Below, in pieces: positions 1,664 through 54,590 of a stretch of DNA of 64,000 nucleotides (position 1 is the stretch's first letter; each line of letters begins with the position of its first letter). The position numbers and the translations under genes were made by a program. Source of the stretch: Escherichia coli (lineage in GTDB: Bacteria; Pseudomonadota; Gammaproteobacteria; Enterobacterales; Enterobacteriaceae). Under the pieces are notes generated by a model. That model was not told the origin of the DNA and searched no databases. It was given only the letters and a program-made list of their open reading frames with translations. The stretch is taken from NCBI RefSeq assembly GCF_003334405.1, contig NZ_QOWM01000015.1; one strand, 5' to 3'.

Positions 1664-3247
<1,584 letters not shown>

Positions 3248-3255
3248 CAGAAAAG

Positions 3256-3328
3256 AAAAAGGCCACTCGTGAGTGGCCAAAATTTCATCTCTGAATTCAG
3301 GGATGATGATAACAAATGCGCGTCTTTC
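3256..3328 (-). ncRNA. micA: MicA (SraD) small regulatory RNA
   Basis: Reverse complement of 3256-3328 reads GAAAGACGCGCATTTGTTATCATCATCCCTGAATTCAGAGATGAAATTTTGGCCACTCACGAGTGGCCTTTTT, matching MicA; the GGCCACTC/GAGTGGCC hairpin plus U-tract is its terminator. Located between gshA and luxS as in K-12. Confidence 0.85.
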
Positions 3329-3396
3329 ATATACTCAGACTCGCCTGGGAAGAAAGAGTTCAGAAAATTTTTAAAAAAATTACCGGAGGTGGCTAA

Positions 3397-3912
3397 ATGC
3401 CGTTGTTAGATAGCTTCACAGTCGATCATACCCGGATGGAAGCGCCTGCAGTTCGGGTGGCGAAAACAATGAACACCCCGCATGGCGACGCAATCACCGT
3501 GTTCGATCTGCGCTTCTGCGTGCCGAACAAAGAAGTGATGCCAGAAAGAGGGATCCATACCCTGGAGCACCTGTTTGCTGGTTTTATGCGTAACCATCTT
3601 AACGGTAATGGTGTAGAGATTATCGATATCTCGCCAATGGGCTGCCGCACCGGTTTTTATATGAGTCTGATTGGTACGCCAGATGAGCAGCGTGTTGCTG
3701 ATGCCTGGAAAGCGGCAATGGAAGACGTGCTGAAAGTGCAGGATCAGAATCAGATCCCGGAACTGAACGTCTACCAGTGTGGCACTTACCAGATGCACTC
3801 GTTGCAGGAAGCGCAGGATATTGCGCGTAGCATTCTGGAACGTGACGTACGCATCAACAGCAACGAAGAACTGGCACTGCCGAAAGAGAAGTTGCAGGAA
3901 CTGCACATCTAG
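3397..3912 (+). CDS. luxS: S-ribosylhomocysteine lyase (autoinducer-2 synthase)
   Basis: 171-aa [26 protein letters not shown]... with the HTLEH metal-binding motif. Confidence 0.95.
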
Positions 3913-3939
3913 TCAGTAAACTATCTTCACAATTAATTG

Positions 3940-3972
3940 AAAAAAGCCAGTTCAAATGAACTGGCTTAGTTG
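3940..3972. terminator. bidirectional rho-independent terminator between luxS and emrB
   Basis: Hairpin GCCAGTTCA/TGAACTGGC flanked by A-run (5') and T-rich (3') sequence between convergent genes. Confidence 0.6.
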
Positions 3973-3975
3973 TAC

Positions 3976-5514
3976 TTAGTGCGCACCGCCTCCGCCGCCA
4001 CCTGCGCCAAATGGCGGTTTAGCAAACCACACCAGCCCCAGCAGGACGAGGAATATCCCGGCTGACATCCAGAAGATCTCATTGGCGGAAATAATCAGCC
4101 CCTGATTGGTGATCTGCTGGGCAATCCAGCCTGATGCCTGCTGTTGCGTCATCCCAAGCCCTTCCAGTTGACTGTACATCGCCTGGGCATTCGGGTTGAA
4201 CGGGTTTACCGACTCAGTCAACTGCGCATGGTGCATCGACTCGCGGTTGGTCCACATGGTCGTGGTTATCGACGTGCCGATAGACCCCGCCAGCGTTCGC
4301 GTAAAGTTAGAGAGGCTCGATGCCGCCGCCAGTCGTTCCGGTGGCAAACCAGACAGCGTAATGGTGGTCAGCGGCATAAAGAAGCAGGCCACCGCAAACC
4401 CCTGGATAAACTGCGGCCAGGCCGACGCGCCAAAATCCATACCTGGTTCAAAGGTATAGGCACGCCAGTAGAAGCAGACGGCATACATAATAAAGCTGAA
4501 GGTTACCAGCCGCCGCATATCCAGTTTATGCGCGAAGCGGCCGATAATCGGCGACAGGATCACCGGAATAATCCCTACCGGCGCAGAGGCCAAACCTGCC
4601 CAGGTCGCCGTGTAACCGTAGACCTCCTGCAACAACTGCGGCAGCAGAACAATAGCGCCGAAGTAGAGCATATACGCGAGGCTGATACACAAGCAGCCGA
4701 TGGTGAAGTTGCGCGACTTAAACAACGACAGATCGACTATCGGGTTATCGTCGGTCAGCTCCCAGACAATCAGGAAGCAGATAGCCACCACCGCCACCAC
4801 GGTAAGGATGATAATTTCCTGTGATGAAAACCAGTCCAGCTCTTTACCGCGGTCGAGCATAATCTGCAGGCTGCCGATACCAATAACCAGCAGTGCCAGC
4901 CCCACGGCATCAATCCGCCGCCGTTCGGTGCGGGTTTCACGTCCGCGCAGAGTTTGCAGTGTCATCAACACCACCGCCACGCCAATCGGCACGTTGATGA
5001 AGAATATCCAGCCCCAGTGGTAATTATCGCTGATATAACCGCCGAGGATCGGGCCGCAAATTGGCGCGACAATCACCGTCATCGACCACAACGCCAGCGC
5101 GATCGAGCGTTTGGCTGGCGGGTAGTTATTCAGCAATAGACTTTGCGAAAGCGGGATCAACGGCCCGGCGACAATCCCCTGAATCACGCGGAAGAAGATC
5201 AGCATATTCAGGCTGCTGGAGACACCACACGCCCACGACGCAATAGCAAAGGCGATGGTGGACCAAAGGAACAGTTTCACTTCCCCGACGCGCTTTGCCA
5301 GCCAGCCGGTAAGCGGGATCGAGATGGCATTCGCCACCCCGAAAGAAGTGATTACCCACGTTCCCTGGCTGAGCGATGAGCCCAGATTCCCGGCGATAGT
5401 GGGGATCGCCACGTTAGCAATGGTGGAGTCCAGCACCTGCATGAATGTCGCCAGTGACAGCGCAATCGTCATAATGACCAGTTGCGCGCCTTCCAGCGGT
5501 TTTTGCTGTTGCAT
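3976..5514 (-). CDS. emrB: multidrug efflux MFS permease EmrB
   Basis: ORF 3976-5523; canonical start MQQQKPLEGAQLV at 5514 gives 512 aa; multi-TM MFS protein. Confidence 0.93.
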   Translation of the reverse strand: MQQQKPLEGAQLVIMTIALSLATFMQVLDSTIANVAIPTIAGNLGSSLSQGTWVITSFGVANAISIPLTGWLAKRVGEVKLFLWSTIAFAIASWACGVSSSLNMLIFFRVIQGIVAGPLIPLSQSLLLNNYPPAKRSIALALWSMTVIVAPICGPILGGYISDNYHWGWIFFINVPIGVAVVLMTLQTLRGRETRTERRRIDAVGLALLVIGIGSLQIMLDRGKELDWFSSQEIIILTVVAVVAICFLIVWELTDDNPIVDLSLFKSRNFTIGCLCISLAYMLYFGAIVLLPQLLQEVYGYTATWAGLASAPVGIIPVILSPIIGRFAHKLDMRRLVTFSFIMYAVCFYWRAYTFEPGMDFGASAWPQFIQGFAVACFFMPLTTITLSGLPPERLAAASSLSNFTRTLAGSIGTSITTTMWTNRESMHHAQLTESVNPFNPNAQAMYSQLEGLGMTQQQASGWIAQQITNQGLIISANEIFWMSAGIFLVLLGLVWFAKPPFGAGGGGGGAH

Positions 5515-5530
5515 CACACGCACCTCTGGA

Positions 5531-6703
5531 TTAGCCAGCGTTAGCTTTTACGATATCGTCGATCAGTTTATTGACAGGTGCCAGGCTGATTTCACGCGCG
5601 GTGCTTACCGCTACCGGAGTGGAACGTACTTTATTTGCCAGTACCTGACCGTCACGGTTAGTGGTATTGACGCTCACCAGCGTGGACAAACCGATACGCA
5701 GCGGATATTGCTCCAGCTGTTTCTGGTCCAGTTCGATACGCACAGGCAGACGCTGAACGACTTTGATCCAGTTACCGGTCGCATTTTGCGCTGGAAGCAG
5801 TGAGAACGCGCTACCTGTGCCCATATCCAGACCAACCACTTTACCGGTGTATTTCACATCATCGCCGTAAATATCCGTGGTGATAGTGACCGGCTGACCG
5901 ATACGCATATTGGCAATCTGCGTCTCTTTAAAGTTGGCATCCACCCACATATTGGTGGCTGGAACGACCGCCATCAGCGGCGTCGTTGGGCTAATTTGCG
6001 CCCCAGGCTGTACCGCGCGGCGGGAGACATAACCGGTCATCGGACTGATAATACGAGTACGCTCCAGCGCCAGCCAGGCGTTACGTACTTCGGTGGCAGC
6101 CTGTTGCACGGCTGGCTGATCTTCCAGTTTAGTCCCCAGAATCATCGCCTGATTGGCATTGTATTGTTGAATCGCGACGTCCAGTTGCGCCTGGGCACTG
6201 GTGACGGCGTCGCGGGCGTGTTGCAGCTCTTCGCGACCAATCAGGTTGGCATTGCCCAGCGGCACACGGCGGTTGTAGTCGCTTTGTGCTTTCGCGAGGG
6301 CGATTTTCTGCACCTCAATATTCGCCTGCAACTGCTTGCTGTTAATCATCAGCTGGTGGGTTTGGCGAACGCTGGAAGCCAGTGCAGTTTTGGCTTTTTC
6401 AAACGCCTGGCGAGCATCTGTCGGGTCGAGAGTGACCAGCACGTCGCCTTCTTTTACAAAATCGGTGTTATCGGCCCAGACTTTCGTCACGCTGCCAGAC
6501 ACCTGAGACATAATTTGAATTTGATTCCCTGCCACGTATGCGTCATCGGTTTCTTCGAAGTGACGCAGTACCAAAAACCAATAAATCCCTATCGCTACGG
6601 CAATAATTATAAAGAGCAAGGTGAGAAGGAGGAGCAGATGCTTACGTTTGCCGCTCTTCTTTACCGGTTGCTGCGGGGTTTGAGTCTCCGCATTTGCGCT
6701 CAT
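5531..6703 (-). CDS. emrA: multidrug efflux periplasmic adaptor EmrA
   Basis: ORF 5531-6715; start MSANAETQTPQQPVKK at 6703 gives 390 aa; single TM plus coiled-coil HlyD-type adaptor. Confidence 0.93.
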   Translation of the reverse strand: MSANAETQTPQQPVKKSGKRKHLLLLLTLLFIIIAVAIGIYWFLVLRHFEETDDAYVAGNQIQIMSQVSGSVTKVWADNTDFVKEGDVLVTLDPTDARQAFEKAKTALASSVRQTHQLMINSKQLQANIEVQKIALAKAQSDYNRRVPLGNANLIGREELQHARDAVTSAQAQLDVAIQQYNANQAMILGTKLEDQPAVQQAATEVRNAWLALERTRIISPMTGYVSRRAVQPGAQISPTTPLMAVVPATNMWVDANFKETQIANMRIGQPVTITTDIYGDDVKYTGKVVGLDMGTGSAFSLLPAQNATGNWIKVVQRLPVRIELDQKQLEQYPLRIGLSTLVSVNTTNRDGQVLANKVRSTPVAVSTAREISLAPVNKLIDDIVKANAG

Positions 6704-48415: not shown

Positions 48416-49369
48416 TTAGAGTCTTTTTCGTACAGATGAACGGGGGATCTCTGGCTTCATTTCTTTTAACAGGTCTTTTTTCTCTCTTGCTGCGATATAA
48501 GAAAAAATCTTATCGGAGTCAGAACGCTGTCTGAGTATATCGTCGTCCATTCGGATACCATTTCGAATGAACCATTTCACACTTTCTATGCCGGTGTAGA
48601 TACCAATATGTTTATCATGATAACAATTATAAAACTGAACATGACTGATATCGGTATATTTTTTCAGTGAGGTAAAGAAGTACTTCATGTTTTTGACATA
48701 TAATGCGAAGGAACAGTGTTCAGCGATAAGGATATTACGCCCTTTTTCATGAAGCAAAGCAATTAGAGGCAAAGCCTCAGTTGAAACATGTTTAAATAAT
48801 ACTGGCGTGCTGTCTATTCTATCAACATGGCGTTTGAGGGCATTAATACTGAAATCATATATCCACCACTCGTTGTCAGTCGGAAGATCCAGCACCGCTT
48901 TGCCACCATAATCTCTGTGGTTTATGTCACACCCTTTATTTACCCAGTAATCAAAGACGTCATGATCGAGGAGGTCATAAAGAAGCGTTTGTCCTTCGTT
49001 ATCTGTGCTGTGGATATCAATGCCCGCGTTTATGAGGAGTTCCGCACAATCTATGGCGTAGCGCTGCCAGTGAAGACAGGACTGGCCTTTATTATTTTTG
49101 TGGTGAACGTTAATACCTGACTTTATCAATAGCCTCACTGCACGTGGGCTTTTTCTGCTAAACAGGGCATTATTACCATAACAATCTGTATGGTTCAGCG
49201 CTATGCCTGCTTCAATCATGGCTTTTAAAGCCCCGATACTGTCGCAACCGAAAAGGGCGTTTTCACCGTGTTCATTAAGTGTGTTAATGTCAATGCCTGC
49301 AGCAATGCAATTCTGGACGTCTTTTTTAGTTTTGCTGTCAAATAAATTATCTTCTGTATAGTTACTCAT
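48416..49369 (-). CDS. ankyrin-repeat protein
   Basis: 317-aa ORF; N-terminal half has repeated ankyrin-like units (…GENALFGC…LKAMIEAGIALNHTDCYGNNALF…AVRLLIKSGINVHHKNNKGQSCLHW…AELLINAGIDIHSTDNEGQTLLY…); C-terminus …SSVRKRL. Confidence 0.7.
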   Translation of the reverse strand: MSNYTEDNLFDSKTKKDVQNCIAAGIDINTLNEHGENALFGCDSIGALKAMIEAGIALNHTDCYGNNALFSRKSPRAVRLLIKSGINVHHKNNKGQSCLHWQRYAIDCAELLINAGIDIHSTDNEGQTLLYDLLDHDVFDYWVNKGCDINHRDYGGKAVLDLPTDNEWWIYDFSINALKRHVDRIDSTPVLFKHVSTEALPLIALLHEKGRNILIAEHCSFALYVKNMKYFFTSLKKYTDISHVQFYNCYHDKHIGIYTGIESVKWFIRNGIRMDDDILRQRSDSDKIFSYIAAREKKDLLKEMKPEIPRSSVRKRL

Positions 49370-49383
49370 GGGCGTTCTCCTTT

Positions 49384-49824
49384 TTAAGCGGTCGTTTTGT
49401 GCCAGGTATTATTGTTGTATTCATATTCTTTTATCTTAATGATCTCGTCATAGATCCGTGAAAAAGAAAACCATGAGATCTCTTTCACTTCGCCTTTTTT
49501 GTTTGTGTAAATGATATTGCAGCCACGAAAAGAAAATGACTGATAGAAAGTATCGTGATTCTCCTCTTTAAGAAAACGGGTAAAAGCTTTTATGGTGTCT
49601 TTTTTTTCCATGCTATAAGAGAAAAAGGTATGGATAGCAAATATGGTCAGAATATTTCTTTCCGTCACCATATGTCTGGAAAAATAATTAAGATAAAAAA
49701 CATGATCTTCAATGCTATTTTTACAGAATATTGAAAAGTGAGGGTTATACAGACGGTAGAGATCTGTATTCTTTTTTGTTTTAGATAGGTAACTTGTCAG
49801 GGTTGAATAGTTTTGTTTTTTCAT
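49384..49824 (-). CDS. hypothetical protein (upstream partner of the ankyrin gene)
   Basis: 146-aa ORF ending 15 nt before the ankyrin start, same strand. Confidence 0.5.
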   Translation of the reverse strand: MKKQNYSTLTSYLSKTKKNTDLYRLYNPHFSIFCKNSIEDHVFYLNYFSRHMVTERNILTIFAIHTFFSYSMEKKDTIKAFTRFLKEENHDTFYQSFSFRGCNIIYTNKKGEVKEISWFSFSRIYDEIIKIKEYEYNNNTWHKTTA

Positions 49825-49826
49825 TT

Positions 49827-50183
49827 TTATTCTCCTTTATTATTTTGATGAAATGAATGTATATTATCAAATAAATAAAAATCAAATTTATTTTTAATAA
49901 TAAAAAATAAGCAAGCGTTTTCTTTTGAATAAACTAATTTAATGTGATGTTTTATATAAATAAATTCATAGTTTGCAAAAAGTGCTATTTTTATTTCATG
50001 GTTGATTGATGGGCGTTTTTCCCCATTGCTTAGGGGGAAATATATCCCATTAATATTAAATGTTTGAAGTGAATCGTATTTTAGCAGGGGAATATTATAT
50101 CTTTTACTTCTGTTTTGATTTTCAACTTTGTGTGTGAGACACAATATGTGATAGTGTTGTGATAATCGTAAGTATCCTGCCAA
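49827..50183 (-). CDS. hypothetical protein (doubtful)
   Basis: 118-aa ORF in extremely AT-rich DNA; may be non-coding. Confidence 0.25.
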   Translation of the reverse strand: MAGYLRLSQHYHILCLTHKVENQNRSKRYNIPLLKYDSLQTFNINGIYFPLSNGEKRPSINHEIKIALFANYEFIYIKHHIKLVYSKENACLFFIIKNKFDFYLFDNIHSFHQNNKGE

Positions 50184-50405: not shown

Positions 50406-50678
50406 TCATAAGAGATGTATCAATCTTGCGAGACTCTCACGGATTTTATCGCCGTCATAAATAGCAATCTCTTCAATATTGTTACCAATGAAAGTTTCAG
50501 CTGCCTGGATGGCTATCAGTTCAGACATACCAACGTTATCAGCCAGCAGGCGTGCTGCAATGACCTTGCTTTCAAGAGTTAGGATGACCGGCCTGTAGCC
50601 TGCGCGTTTGATTTTGATACAGTGTGAAATCAATTTCTCCATAGGTGCGGTGGTCACTTGGAATGCAGTCGTACCCAC
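50406..50678 (-). pseudogene. possible gene remnant
   Basis: 90-aa ORF in a ~1.3 kb stretch (50.2-51.5 kb) lacking long ORFs; no family recognised. Confidence 0.25.
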
Positions 50679-51401
50679 CTGAAAGGCCCCTTCACGGTCA
50701 ATGTGTGGATCATTAGCATTGGCCCTGCGACTACTGATTTTAACATCTAGGGAAACGTAGCTGATGTTTGGCTTCGATAAGATTCTGTAGCACCGCCTCA
50801 GTGGGGTTGTCAGAACATTCCGCTGCCGCCTTAAGAATATCGCTTACTAGAGATGAAACTGGTTGATTGTAATCCCGGTCGACCGTTACTCTATGTTTAT
50901 CCGGATAATTTTGGCGTACACATTAAGTGAAGAAAACTTCAAAGTGATTTGAAACAGATGTTGTATTCACTGGCTCATTTACATTAACTTGAGTGTTGTT
51001 CAGCACATGTTGAAACGCAGCTGTAAGGAAGATGATACAGCCAAGATGTATCCTTCATTATGGGGATTGGCGCGATGACCACCACGGCTTAGCCCGATTG
51101 ATTATTTGGAAATTGATTAGAATGCATAATCTGGGCTGAGCTCACTTAAAGTCTCTAATGTTTGACTTGGAGATTTGGGGGGCAGTGGCTTTCAGTTTTG
51201 TTAACTCTAACATCTGGTTTACGTTCCTTTTGGAACAAGAAGCAGAGGTCTGCTAAGTAATGGTTGTACTGCTTGTGATAGGTATGACTGCATGTTCAGC
51301 GAGCAAGAATGGCTTAAAAGTTCTGTTACTGAGCACCCCATGAAGTTAGAACGATGTCATAACGTGCACGTAACCGTTGAACTGTTCTCTTACAGATAAT
51401 C

Positions 51402-51440
51402 TCTACATAGCTATTATTGCTTAGGCGGTAGCTATGTAGA
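51402..51440. promoter_or_regulatory. 12-bp perfect inverted repeat upstream of the NACHT gene (candidate operator)
   Basis: TCTACATAGCTA (51402-51413) and TAGCTATGTAGA (51429-51440) with a 15-bp spacer, ~80 bp upstream of the start at 51518. Confidence 0.45.
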
Positions 51441-51517
51441 TGGTTTTTGTAATATTATATTAAAAGTTCATACAGCGACTATAGCATCATTGCGAAAAAT
51501 ATCAGGAGGTGAGTTTA

Positions 51518-53623
51518 ATGTTACGAAAAAGCAAACTTACAGAGATATATAAAAGGTTTGGTTTTACTGAAGAAAATACAGGTAACGAAAGTATTGCTGT
51601 ATATTCTATTAAAACAGGGCACTACCATAACGCGGACATACTTCCACTAAATAATGAGGTTAATGTAAATCAAACCTTTGAAGAATATAGGCAGTTAGGT
51701 TATGCATGTCAAATTAAAAAATATCAGTCTTATGAAGAAGCACATAAGGAATTATTTAATGGCTTCTTTAGCGTCGATTCAACTAAAGAAAGGTTGATTA
51801 AAGATTATAATACTTTCACAGATTCAATTGTAAAAATTCACTCACCTACTGCAACTTATTCCTACATAAATTCAAAATATTACTTAAATGGTGTTATTGG
51901 CGAAGCTAATGTTGTTACGGAAATATTAGAGAGAATACAACATAGGCGTCCAATTCTGTTTTTGATTGAGGCTGCAGCCGGTTTTGGAAAGACTTGCACG
52001 GCGTATGAATTATTGAGGGAGATTATAGTTAACAATATAGGGAAAATACCATTATTTTCAGAACTATCAAGGAATAGGCAAGCAAAAATATTCAGGTATG
52101 TACTATTAGATGAAATTGATAGAAGTTTTCCTTTGTTAAGCTCAGCCTTAGTAAGGAATGAAATAAGAGCAGGAAATGTACCAGTTATACTTGACGGGTT
52201 TGATGAACTATTGCATGAAAGTACAAACGGAATTGAAAATAATTATGAAAAAACAGAGCCAATGCTGGAAACAATAAGTGAGCTTCTAACTGATAGTGCA
52301 AAAGTGGTTTTGACAACTCGAAGAACAGCTATATTTGACGGAGATGAATTCCATCAGTGGATAGCATCACATCAAGAAGATTTTGATGTGATAAGAATAA
52401 GAATTCATGAACCACAAATTGAAGACTGGCTTCCAGGTCAACGTTTAGATGAAATTTCATCGACAGGATTTCCTCTTAACAAATTATCAAACCCTGTACT
52501 GCTATCATTTCTAAGATGCATCGACGACACCGACTTTAATAAAGTTATAAGCGACCCAACAACTATAGTGAGGAAGTATTTTGATTCAATGCTTGAGCGA
52601 GAAAGAAAAAGACAAGATTTATTAATGTCTATTGAAGATCAATATACTATACTAAAAATAATAGCTGACGACATGGTCGAGGGTAACTACACATCTGAGT
52701 CTAGAGAGTATATATCGTTAGTCATAACTGAAAAGAATCAACAACTCTTGGAGGCTACAAGAAAGCTTTATACTGTAGATGAAAGACCAACTACTGACGA
52801 ATTAGTTAATAAATTAGCATCGCATGCTCTATTAGATCGGTCAGGCTCAGAAAACCAAGGTATTGGATTTGTTAATGAATTTGTTCTTGGTAATTTTGTT
52901 TCTGAAAATATTATTAATGATAAGTCAAATGAATGGATTGGTGATAAACGTTTTATAGAACCAGCAGTGCAATCTTATATGCCGAGGATCGATGATGAAA
53001 AAGAATTACTTTGGCATAGCTTAGAGTTTGCTTTATATTTTATGTCAGGTAATGATAAAATCCTTTATAGTCATTTGCTTATAGGAAAAGTTCCATTAGA
53101 TTTAAAAAATGATAGTGTTGAGCAATTGTCTATATCAAAACTTTCTTTAGGCGATATAAATATAATACATGATACTATCTTTGTTGATTGTTCCTTTTTT
53201 AGCAGCATATTTACCTGTGGTAATTATAAAAACGTTACATTCGTGAACTGTTCTTTTATAGATTGTAGTTTTAACGAATTAAGTGGTAGGGAAGATATTT
53301 ATTTTTTGGGATGTGAATGTGACAATGATGCTATTAATAAAAAATCTGTCGAGATAAACAGTGAAAATGATCACGATATTACAGATTGTGATATTTACAT
53401 CTTAGAGAAGTTCTGTCCCAGAGGGAGTGTTAGCTATCATAAGCATCGGCCTATAAAAGGCTTATGTTCTAACAACAATCAATTTCAGTTAAGTGAAATA
53501 CTCCATTCTTTAGATAAATTGAGGAAAGACGGTCTTTTACTTACGCCAGACAAGCGTTCGTTCCTTGAACTTAACATGGCAAGAATATCAGAGATTAAAG
53601 CAATTCTTGGGAGGAATTTCTGA
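51518..53623 (+). CDS. NACHT-type STAND P-loop NTPase with Cys-rich repeat C-terminus
   Basis: ORF 51509-53623; ATG at 51518 sits 8 nt after AGGAGGT. Walker A LIEAAAGFGKT, Walker B VILDGFDEL (hhhhDGhDE), then VVLTTRR, in NACHT order; C-terminal Cys-rich region (FVDCSFFSSIFTCGNYKNVTFVNCSFIDCSF…). Confidence 0.75.
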   Translation: MLRKSKLTEIYKRFGFTEENTGNESIAVYSIKTGHYHNADILPLNNEVNVNQTFEEYRQLGYACQIKKYQSYEEAHKELFNGFFSVDSTKERLIKDYNTFTDSIVKIHSPTATYSYINSKYYLNGVIGEANVVTEILERIQHRRPILFLIEAAAGFGKTCTAYELLREIIVNNIGKIPLFSELSRNRQAKIFRYVLLDEIDRSFPLLSSALVRNEIRAGNVPVILDGFDELLHESTNGIENNYEKTEPMLETISELLTDSAKVVLTTRRTAIFDGDEFHQWIASHQEDFDVIRIRIHEPQIEDWLPGQRLDEISSTGFPLNKLSNPVLLSFLRCIDDTDFNKVISDPTTIVRKYFDSMLERERKRQDLLMSIEDQYTILKIIADDMVEGNYTSESREYISLVITEKNQQLLEATRKLYTVDERPTTDELVNKLASHALLDRSGSENQGIGFVNEFVLGNFVSENIINDKSNEWIGDKRFIEPAVQSYMPRIDDEKELLWHSLEFALYFMSGNDKILYSHLLIGKVPLDLKNDSVEQLSISKLSLGDINIIHDTIFVDCSFFSSIFTCGNYKNVTFVNCSFIDCSFNELSGREDIYFLGCECDNDAINKKSVEINSENDHDITDCDIYILEKFCPRGSVSYHKHRPIKGLCSNNNQFQLSEILHSLDKLRKDGLLLTPDKRSFLELNMARISEIKAILGRNF

Positions 53624-54528
53624 TGTATAACGGGAATGAATTGCGAATTATTCAAAGTTTGCAAAAAGATATAGAAGATGAACTTAATCGTATTGGATTA
53701 CTTTATCGTTTTTTTTCGAGGACAAAATCAGAAAGCTCAATAATTAAGAAATATGAAAAAGAGCCTAATAAATACTCAGAGGATGGTAAAAAAATTCAAG
53801 ACTTATTTGGGGTTAGGATAATATTATATTTTCCTGATGATTTATTTATTGCTCAAAAAACACTGGAGAAATTATTCGAAATTGAATCTAAAACCGTAGA
53901 CGAAACCACGGCTAATCTCTTTGCGGCAACTCGATGCAATTACGTCTTTAAGTTACCAGAAGTATTATCAAATGATAGTGTCTTATTAAAGAAATATTCT
54001 TATATTGATACTACTTTTGAAGTCCAATTTAGAACTATTTTATCTGAAGGATGGCATGAAGTTGAGCATGATCTACGCTATAAGTGCAAAGAGGATTGGG
54101 TTGAGCATAATGACCTTAGTCGCGCGCTGAATGGAATTTACGCCTCTTTGGAAACATCTGATTGGGGAATAATGAAGTTATTTGAGGATTTAGCATATAG
54201 AAATTATAAGTCAAGCGCATGGTCCGCTATGCTAAGAAATAAATTAAGATTGAGAATGGACGATAAGCTTGATGAAAAGATAATTTCAATAATTAATGAG
54301 AAAGAGCTTGGTAAAAAGTTTTATAGAATTGACAGAGATCGTTTGTTATCGTTAATGTTAGATTATAATATTGATATACCAATTAATCTTAATAATATAA
54401 TTTACCTTTGTAATTATTTTTTCATAAAATCTACGGAGCTTCAGGATATAGCCCCTGCTTTAATAATGAAAAAGCTTACAGATGCTGATGAAAAATTCAA
54501 TAAAAATACTATTTTAGCATCTAAATAA
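53623..54528 (+). CDS. RelA/SpoT-homolog (RSH) synthetase-fold nucleotidyltransferase, toxSAS-like
   Basis: 301-aa ORF whose ATG overlaps the upstream stop (TGATG). Motifs SRTKSESSIIKK, DLFGVRIILYFPDD and EVQFRTILSEGWHEVEHDLRYK match the (p)ppGpp synthetase fold (compare RelA EVQIRT…AAHWKYK). Confidence 0.7.
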   Translation: MYNGNELRIIQSLQKDIEDELNRIGLLYRFFSRTKSESSIIKKYEKEPNKYSEDGKKIQDLFGVRIILYFPDDLFIAQKTLEKLFEIESKTVDETTANLFAATRCNYVFKLPEVLSNDSVLLKKYSYIDTTFEVQFRTILSEGWHEVEHDLRYKCKEDWVEHNDLSRALNGIYASLETSDWGIMKLFEDLAYRNYKSSAWSAMLRNKLRLRMDDKLDEKIISIINEKELGKKFYRIDRDRLLSLMLDYNIDIPINLNNIIYLCNYFFIKSTELQDIAPALIMKKLTDADEKFNKNTILASK

Positions 54529-54555
54529 TAACTATCTCCGGCTATTAAGTAGGCC

Positions 54556-54590
54556 TTGTATTTTAGGCCTACTTAAAAAGTTTCATTATG
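54556..54590 (+). terminator. rho-independent terminator after the NACHT-RSH operon
   Basis: Hairpin AAGTAGGCC/GGCCTACTT with T-rich loop, followed by AAAAAGTTT, 28 nt after the stop. Confidence 0.55.

Follow-up and report, generated by a model that had tools for sequence, protein, structure and literature searches.

A Coupled NACHT–RelA/SpoT Gene Pair in Escherichia coli as a Candidate NLR-type Immune Module with a Trans-encoded Effector

Introduction

Positions 51,402–54,590 of a 64,000-nucleotide stretch of Escherichia coli DNA (contig NZ_QOWM01000015.1 of RefSeq assembly GCF_003334405.1; the whole stretch is called the window below) hold two overlapping genes, the first for a NACHT protein of the STAND NTPase class and the second for a RelA/SpoT homologue (RSH). 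The locus raises the question of what such an NTPase does with an RSH enzyme that is encoded as a separate protein. A reading of the sequence alone had proposed an undescribed anti-phage system and had offered two mechanisms, one in which the NTPase is a sensor that licenses the RSH in trans and one in which the RSH is a toxin held in check by the NTPase. With modest confidence, we favor a self-contained two-gene module of NLR-type immunity in which a trans-encoded RSH effector would abort phage infection.

The NACHT and RSH Genes Form an Obligate Two-gene Module

Both open reading frames (ORFs) called in the sequence-only reading, of 701 and 301 aa, are present, as follows.

51504–51509, plus strand: Shine-Dalgarno sequence AGGAGG, 8 nt upstream of the gene 1 ATG.
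51518–53623, plus strand: gene 1, NLR-like STAND NTPase, 701 aa, WP_000944877.1 (RefSeq name "NACHT domain-containing protein").
53621–53625, plus strand: TGATG stop/start overlap, junction ttcTGATGtat, with GGAGG a few nt upstream.
53623–54528, plus strand: gene 2, RelA/SpoT-homologue pyrophosphokinase, 301 aa, WP_000282312.1.

The program-made ORF of gene 1 begins with a GTG at 51509 and has 704 aa; we take the product to be 701 aa because the Shine-Dalgarno sequence precedes the ATG at 51518 and the RefSeq start lies there as well. The overlap that had been read as translational coupling is found at the junction together with its GGAGG, and the two genes are predicted to be translationally coupled through it.

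An RSH profile was used to scan one genome per species across ∼100,000 species; 92 relatives were confirmed, and the best 80 of the 92 loci were kept. The survey bore out the view that the two genes belong together: in 78 of the 78 species loci having upstream DNA, the RSH gene is directly preceded by the NACHT gene in the same orientation, in mobile and often defense-rich settings, and at the remaining 2 of the 80 loci the RSH gene is at a contig edge. The paired loci span Gamma-, Beta-, and Epsilonproteobacteria, Myxococcota, many Bacteroidota, Firmicutes, and Cyanobacteria. The spacing between the two genes is −4 in 24 loci and −1 in 13 (37 of 78 overlap), and the gap is 17 nt or less in 76 of 78. 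The same layout occurs between unrelated flanks in Vibrio parahaemolyticus and Pseudomonas aeruginosa and on the two plasmids inspected, and the pair is present in all seven contigs from the IMG/VR viral collection, four of which correspond to this E. coli island, identified there as a provirus. Over 68 loci the pairwise identities of the two proteins correlate with r = 0.93, indicating that the partners are not exchanged. These results demonstrate that the NACHT and RSH genes are an obligate two-gene module.

A third conserved gene (antitoxin, hydrolase, or adaptor) was sought by clustering the 570 flanking ORFs of the 78 loci, and none was found, no flanking cluster being common to more than 6 of the 78; the clusters common to several loci are neighboring systems such as type I restriction-modification (R-M) and AbiE. 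No fused NACHT-RSH protein occurs among the 120 listed homologues or the 78 loci, and no homologous domain common to the two proteins was detected with hhalign (best probability 0.2%), so that any coupling between them would be heterotypic.

Strict one-to-one pairing and co-evolution would also fit a toxin and its binding partner. On that account the NACHT protein sequesters a toxSAS-type toxin, the constitutively active RSH, until a trigger (phage, or a change in the nucleoside triphosphate (NTP) state) frees it. The gene order suits such an account, since the putative neutralizer gene comes first and its stop overlaps the start of the next gene, as is typical of toxin-antitoxin operons. We nevertheless regard it as unlikely in view of the properties of both proteins and of the naturally broken copies described below.

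Gene 1 Encodes an NLR-like NACHT Protein with an Inactive N-terminal Domain

Four regions were delineated in the gene 1 protein.

51533–51886, plus strand: NA-iREase2 domain, aa 6–123 (Pfam PF22723, E 3.2e-33).
51887–52927, plus strand: NACHT module, about aa 124–470, with Walker A AAGFGKT, Walker B ILDGFDEL, sensor TTRR, and winged-helix His436.
53093–53332, plus strand: pentapeptide-repeat right-handed beta-helix, about aa 526–605, with a Phe/Cys core, from profile and model.
53333–53620, plus strand: small C-terminal alpha/beta domain, aa 606–701, the most variable region (23% mean identity).

The motifs in NACHT order (Walker A, Walker B, TTRR) recognized in the sequence-only reading are present and are invariant or nearly so in an alignment of 77 homologues from many phyla. 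The invariant residues are E151-A-A-A-G155-x-G157-K158-T159, D226-G-F-D229-E230-L, T266-x-R268, P326, and H436, and all the features by which a NACHT protein is recognized (Walker A GxxGxGK[ST], Walker B hhhhDGhDE, the sensor-1 Arg, and the winged-helix His) are found in the gene 1 protein. Pfam NACHT (PF05729) matches it only at E 0.008, and the gene 1 profile compared with PDB sequences matched no solved NLR, only the pentapeptide region (∼residues 530–610). Because the PDB sequence search reached that region only, the NACHT assignment was settled by structure prediction and Foldseek. The AlphaFold2 model (pLDDT 86) is closest to NLRP14, NLRP7, NLRP3, and NLRC4, with Avs4 at rank 9 (Foldseek E 3e-9 to 8e-8); the TM-scores of these matches are low, which is not surprising for multi-domain proteins. 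No known toxSAS antitoxin resembles a 701-aa NTPase whose catalytic motifs are invariant, a point against a neutralizing role for the NACHT protein.

The N-terminal domain was missed in the sequence-only reading. NA-iREase2 stands for "NACHT-associated inactive restriction endonuclease 2," and the match covers residues 9–126 in the numbering of the 704-aa ORF, or 6–123 in the 701-aa product. No Asp, Glu, or Lys is invariant in the first 126 residues among the 70–77 homologues aligned there, which agrees with the "inactive" label and leaves the NACHT protein without an effector of its own. Pfam and the model revealed no enzymatic or membrane domain in the protein besides the NACHT, iREase2, and pentapeptide regions. 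We propose that NA-iREase2 serves as a docking or adaptor module for the RSH partner. The domain is rare, with 290 cluster representatives at E ≤ 1e-3 among 1.84 billion; in the best 150 of these 290, all full-length proteins have 693–731 aa with the domain at the N terminus, and no other architecture was seen among those 150, exceptions being possible in the weaker 140. Starting from the domain rather than from the RSH, four of four divergent NA-iREase2 proteins have a gene directly downstream, which encodes RelA_SpoT in the three of three that could be scored; the downstream gene of the fourth is cut by the contig end.

The Cys-rich repeat C terminus described earlier stands as a repeat, and its identity is now a pentapeptide beta-helix followed by the small alpha/beta domain. 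The Pfam pentapeptide match is weak (E 0.007); the profile of the region matches McbG-like, Qnr, MfpA, and HalA proteins at E ∼1e-6 and also hits SV2, and the model has a ladder of beta-strands there. The C-terminal 230 aa are the fastest-evolving part of the protein, with 23–27% mean pairwise identity (27% for the beta-helix) against 50% for the nucleotide-binding domain. The beta-helix is a putative ligand sensor.

Gene 2 Encodes an RSH Enzyme with Intact Catalytic Motifs

The gene 2 protein comprises two regions.

53704–54102, plus strand: RSH synthetase domain, aa 28–160 (RelA_SpoT PF04607, E 7.8e-15).
54103–54525, plus strand: family-specific helical C-terminal region, aa 161–301, with an NGxxAxLE motif, K196, R209, K231, and R238.

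The synthetase motifs read from the sequence are borne out in an alignment of 83 homologues, in which the catalytic residues are intact and R33, K35, S39, K43, D60, R65, E133, Q135, R137, H145, H149, R152, and K154 are invariant; G63 is kept in at least 90%. The motif frames are R33-x-K35...S39...K43, D60-x-x-G63-x-R65, and E133-x-Q135-x-R137-T. The family profile matches PDB entries at E 7e-14 to 1e-10, among them 2be3 (E 7e-14), RelQ (E 1.5e-11), and RelP, and the model (pLDDT 92.7) has RelP and RelQ as its closest folds (Foldseek E 3e-7 for RelP). Profile searches and fold comparison thereby uphold both earlier family assignments, the gene 1 profile evidence coming from NA-iREase2 more than from NACHT itself. 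CapRel (7ztb), a phage-triggered abortive-infection effector, comes further down the list of fold matches (E 8e-5), and no CapRel among the PDB chains was matched by profile or sequence, even at E up to 1. Although CapRel is thus among the structural matches, which suits a toxin held by its neighbor, the RSH is closer to the nontoxic RelP and RelQ in both sequence and fold, which speaks against that account.

In place of GYRSxH, the canonical G-loop in which the acceptor nucleotide is held, the RSH has F100-x-[A/P]-x-R104-x-N106, and this segment is placed differently in the alignments to RelQ and to 2be3. A prediction of the substrate from the G-loop was dropped because these two best alignments disagree. 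In the C-terminal region, NGxxAxLE is invariant and the basic residues K196, R209, K231, and R238 are conserved. No structural match to aa 161–301 was found in the PDB, and we propose this region as a partner-binding or substrate-binding module.

The order of action could also be the reverse, with the RSH sensing infection and its nucleotide signal activating the NACHT protein, which would act through the REase-like domain or through the pentapeptide domain as a DNA mimic. Nucleotide second messengers drive many defense systems (CBASS, Thoeris, and Pycsar), and the pentapeptide-repeat proteins MfpA and Qnr, both matched by the gene 1 region, act on DNA gyrase. We consider this order very improbable: the REase-like domain is without conserved catalytic residues and the NACHT protein offers no other enzymatic or membrane domain, the NTPase precedes the effector in all characterized STAND/NLR systems, and no sensor domain is recognizable in the RSH, of which only the last 100 aa are most variable.

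The RSH Gene Outlasts Loss of the NACHT Gene in Nature

The pair is patchily distributed, both among species (92 of ∼100,000) and within E. coli, where 76 of 5426 complete genomes carry the 3.2-kb segment, always on the chromosome and at 99% identity or more. Intactness was tallied for the 60 best of the 76 carriers. Both genes are annotated as intact in 31 of the 60; a broken NACHT gene stands beside an intact, identical RSH ORF in ∼17–19, the RSH gene is frameshifted and the NACHT gene intact in 5, and the state of another 5 is unclear. The cassette is thus often inactivated in nature. The NACHT lesions (IS2 with ISVsa5, IS66, a frameshift that splits the gene with the promoter kept, and two 5′ deletions) represent at least 5 independent events, all of which leave the RSH ORF intact and identical. 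A Yersinia plasmid (NZ_CP032488.1) likewise has a NACHT gene truncated by IS1 and an intact RSH gene, with a reverse transcriptase and an N6-methylase as neighbors.

If the RSH were toxic under all conditions and depended on the full NACHT protein as its antitoxin, it should not persist beside such lesions, so these genomes argue against an antitoxin role and disfavor the second of the two mechanisms first offered, in which the toxin is held in check. The first, a sensor that licenses the RSH in trans, is the one that we prefer.

Relatives of the Pair Lie in Mobile and Often Defense-rich DNA

The defense context was sampled through 20 neighbors by NCBIfam and 10 cluster representatives by PADLOC. 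At eight loci the pair is embedded in a type I R-M operon or abuts one, in the same orientation and only a few bases away, and at 4 it adjoins AbiEi/AbiEii. The P. aeruginosa copies adjoin Abi_2, DUF3987, and an integrase; divergent metagenomic loci adjoin BrxC/D-like, NERD-UvrD, HNH, and DNA methylase genes. Further neighbors are an OLD/retron-Eco8-like ATPase, a HipA-like kinase, an IS1182 transposase, and UmuC. The pair is also found on eight plasmids. The conjugative IncFIB/IncFII plasmid NZ_CP043587.1 of Klebsiella carries a 45%-identical copy at 2881–5864, between a tyrosine recombinase and IS3 and ∼3 kb from pifC, the F-plasmid phage-exclusion regulator. A search of 50,697 phage genome records found no homologue, a result that is neutral rather than supportive.

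This distribution bears on a nonimmune role, in which the pair would be a stabilization (addiction) module, a device of competition between elements, or an NTP-gated stress-signaling unit that tunes an alarmone to a cue other than phage. The pair is always in accessory DNA (islands and IncF plasmids), near integrases, IS elements, and partition genes; many loci have no recognizable defense neighbor, and stress signaling is the classical role of RSH enzymes. Against this stand the embedding of the pair in type I R-M operons and its adjacency to Abi- and BREX-like genes, together with an NLR-type architecture, including a fast-evolving C-terminal repeat sensor, that has so far been tied to non-self recognition. 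The frequent pseudogenization in E. coli is also more readily explained for an immune gene that carries a cost than for a regulator with housekeeping duties. We therefore judge a nonimmune role quite unlikely.

In several Bacteroidota and Betaproteobacteria (loci L058, L050, L064, L065, L074, L075, and others), the pair is inserted within the type I R-M operon itself, after hsdM/hsdS or before hsdR, on the same strand and with gaps of 5–26 nt. PrrC-type anticodon nucleases occupy this position in such operons elsewhere.

Comparison with Known Systems

The claim that the pair is not a named system holds. Neither protein reaches a curated model in NCBIfam 20.0 (2026), the RefSeq names are generic, and neither the split pair nor the accessions appear in any paper of the searched literature, whose coverage excludes subscription-only papers; PADLOC offered no match for the pair either. 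The architecture of the NACHT protein, on the other hand, is already catalogued: bNACHT clade 15 includes an NA-iREase2+NACHT+Pentapeptide architecture (Kibby et al., Table S1; bioRxiv 10.1101/2022.07.19.500537). By the same study, bNACHT proteins protect against phage and have N-terminal effectors or adaptors and C-terminal sensors, alarmone synthetases are listed among the effectors fused to bacterial NACHT proteins, and bNACHT genes are only rarely in operons, and those poorly conserved (bioRxiv 10.1101/2022.07.19.500537).

The gene 1 domain string equals that of Vibrio cholerae WP_142737953.1 and Pseudomonas fluorescens WP_123441813.1, so that clade 15 is assigned by string and not by tree. 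The protein has the same tripartite plan of N-terminal effector or adaptor, NACHT, and C-terminal repeat sensor, and keeps the NACHT motifs and the winged-helix His. The tested members of the clade differ in carrying other N termini (bNACHT09, with TIR; bNACHT34; bNACHT69), and the 2482-nt insert of bNACHT69 indicates a single gene, a deduction that covers bNACHT69 only. The architecture of gene 1 is represented by none of the bNACHT proteins that were tested. In contrast, the NACHT-RSH family always occurs as a strictly conserved two-gene operon, and its N-terminal domain is catalytically dead.

Eukaryotes supply the nearest parallel. An N-terminal RelA_SpoT domain was noted in fungal NLRs in 2014 (Dyrka et al., PMC4986451), and a Tox-RelA+NACHT+Pentapeptide+beta-propeller fusion is listed for the foraminiferan Reticulomyxa. 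These proteins resemble the E. coli pair in subjecting an RSH-type enzyme to a NACHT/NB-ARC switch that comes with a repeat sensor. The eukaryotic RSH, however, is fused to its receptor; in E. coli it has a coupled gene of its own, and the place of an N-terminal effector is taken by an inactive REase. The combination of NACHT and RSH is therefore not new as such, and the novelty lies in the split, trans-encoded form and the strict coupling. The pair is most likely the bacterial split counterpart of the fungal RelA_SpoT-NLR immune receptors.

In toxSAS modules, RSH enzymes are growth-arresting toxins with adjacent or fused neutralizers (PMC7229694), a precedent for the toxin-antitoxin account. 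With FaRel, FaRel2, PhRel, PhRel2, and CapRelSJ46, the pair has in common a small single-domain RSH, mobile DNA, overlapping bicistronic operons, and the catalytic core. It differs in that the partner is neither a small antitoxin nor a fused pseudo-ZFD, in the affinity of gene 2 to RelP/RelQ, in a C-terminal helical region specific to the family, and in an RSH that outlives its partner in natural genomes. The description of a toxSAS, a small alarmone synthetase with a small cognate antitoxin, does not apply to an RSH whose partner has 701 aa, whose loci have no third conserved gene, and whose ORF stays intact when that partner is broken.

Trans-encoded effectors of NTPase conflict systems have been predicted through a common EAD (Kaur et al. 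2020, PMC7159879). Those systems resemble the pair in joining a constant NTPase core and a separately encoded effector in one operon; there, in contrast, the same small adaptor domain is on both proteins, and the NACHT-RSH pair has no such domain. With Avs proteins the gene 1 product has in common the STAND NTPase fold, Avs4 being among its best structural matches, and the logic of sensor, switch, and effector. In Avs proteins, however, the sensors are TPR-like and the effectors (nuclease, SIR2, or others) are fused. The gene 1 protein is matched by no Avs model of PADLOC, and its N-terminal domain is inactive where Avs1–5 (AVAST) have a fused effector.

A Proposed Mechanism in Which the NACHT Protein Switches on the RSH

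Because its N-terminal REase fold is catalytically dead, the NACHT protein cannot kill alone. This lack of an effector in the NACHT protein is the strongest argument that the RSH, the only conserved catalytic output of the module, is the effector.

In the scheme that we propose, the variable C-terminal half of the NACHT protein (beta-helix and small domain) would recognize a cue that is derived from or induced by phage, and the NACHT NTPase would then oligomerize in an NTP-dependent manner, as do other STAND/NLR proteins. Once assembled, the NACHT protein would recruit and activate the RSH, which is presumably made in fixed proportion through translational coupling; most likely the iREase2 domain would contact the family-specific C-terminal region of the RSH. 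Since RelQ and similar small alarmone synthetases act as oligomers, activation by induced proximity would be reasonable. The active RSH would move pyrophosphate from ATP either to a nucleotide, yielding (p)ppGpp or (p)ppApp, or to the CCA 3′ end of tRNA, and this transfer would stop growth or translation and abort the infection. The noncanonical G-loop and the basic helical extension suggest that an unusual acceptor may be used. In this complete form, in which an NLR-type receptor activates the RSH in trans, the dead REase is the docking adaptor, and the RSH may use tRNA or a new nucleotide as acceptor, the proposal is tentative, and we hold it to be possible rather than probable. We infer its anti-phage function, activation rather than release, the docking surfaces, and the RSH substrate.

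Several observations weigh against an immune module of this kind. No defense-system model in PADLOC-DB 2.0 (2023) matches either protein, save a weak match of the RSH to PDC-S33. Many loci have housekeeping neighbors, for example katG, signal peptidase, and HPPD, and the "defense island" setting is a supported impression rather than an enrichment statistic against background. No homologous domain joins the two proteins, which leaves the iREase2-RSH contact purely conjectural. The G-loop is noncanonical and its placement depends on the alignment, so that neither the substrate nor activity of the nucleotide-synthetase type is assured. Finally, the RSH may be unexpressed in the NACHT-broken strains, which weakens the case against an antitoxin role.

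If the proposal is correct, RSH pyrophosphokinases are a new effector class for bacterial NLR immunity and the pair represents the first bacterial immune pathway from an NLR to an alarmone (or to tRNA pyrophosphorylation). It would show that NLR assembly can switch on an enzyme outside its own polypeptide, in a form in which separate proteins let activation be dissected, and would assign a role to the "inactive REase" domain by which an entire bNACHT clade is defined. It would also provide a bacterial, tractable E. coli model for the fungal RelA_SpoT-NLRs, whose biochemical output is unreported in the papers retrieved. Native to E. coli, 3.2 kb long, and self-contained, the system is an easily testable candidate.

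Flanking Elements and the Island

The elements that flank the pair are as follows.

50406–50783, minus strand: type II restriction endonuclease remnant (PADLOC REase_II, E 1e-40, over the last 88 of 331 profile positions only).
51389–51417, plus strand: promoter-like CTTACA-17-TATTAT, overlapped by an inverted repeat (element 51389–51452).
54545–54576, plus strand: downstream hairpin with a perfect 12-bp stem and 8-nt loop, 17 nt past the gene 2 stop.
59199–60428: tyrosine integrase, adjoining ssrA and the ParB/recombinase genes.
60595–60957, minus strand: tmRNA gene (ssrA).

Two labels given in the sequence-only reading, a palindromic operator-like site and a terminator, are unproven, although the structures themselves are there. 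Upstream, a perfect 12-bp inverted repeat (51402–51413 and 51429–51440), extendable to arms of 24 nt at 79%, folds as RNA at −27.8 kcal/mol (z −5.9); it may be an operator or a hairpin that insulates the pair from upstream transcription. The downstream hairpin (−20.8 kcal/mol, z −4.2) is not followed by a T-run, and a terminator scan did not report it; it is possibly a weak terminator or an RNA-stabilizing stem.

The earlier placement in an AT-rich, tmRNA-linked island with recombinase and mobilization genes is confirmed. GC content is 31–37% around the pair compared with ∼50% in core DNA of the E. coli chromosome, and the RefSeq annotation of an identical copy gives a relaxase, an ankyrin-repeat protein, a degraded DUF4928 gene, two ParB-like genes, a serine recombinase, a tyrosine integrase, and ssrA around it. 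The pair thus sits on an island integrated beside the tmRNA gene; no ssrA att repeats of 18 nt or more that would delimit it were found. The REase_II remnant, which RefSeq names DUF4928 and which adjoins a pseudogene fragment, is a decayed defense gene and the next gene upstream of the pair.

Other features were observed on the island. Directly beside the tyrosine integrase and ssrA, three overlapping genes at 55581–58922 (minus strand) encode two paralogous ParB-like proteins of 298 aa each (phrog_31451 and phrog_3951) and a large serine recombinase of 518 aa. A double ParB with a second recombinase is an unusual set for an ssrA island and may function in partition, in excision control, or as another conflict system. 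At 48416–49369 (minus strand), a 317-aa ankyrin-repeat protein weakly matches PDC-M72A, a component of a PADLOC candidate system (E 3e-8), and its gene is followed by two small genes without assigned function (49384–50183).

Further away, a 36-nt direct repeat occurs three times at 44172–44305, with copies 75–81% identical to the reference copy and spaced by 49 nt, between genes of the mobilizable island. The repeats are iteron-like and could be an origin or an oriT-associated binding array. At 32300–32375 (plus strand), ARAGORN calls a tRNA-Met with a CAT anticodon where the corresponding RefSeq gene is tRNA-Ile, a disagreement presumably explained by a lysidine-modified CAU. This tRNA gene belongs to an AT-rich tract starting at about 29 kb, a hint of a second island boundary in the window.

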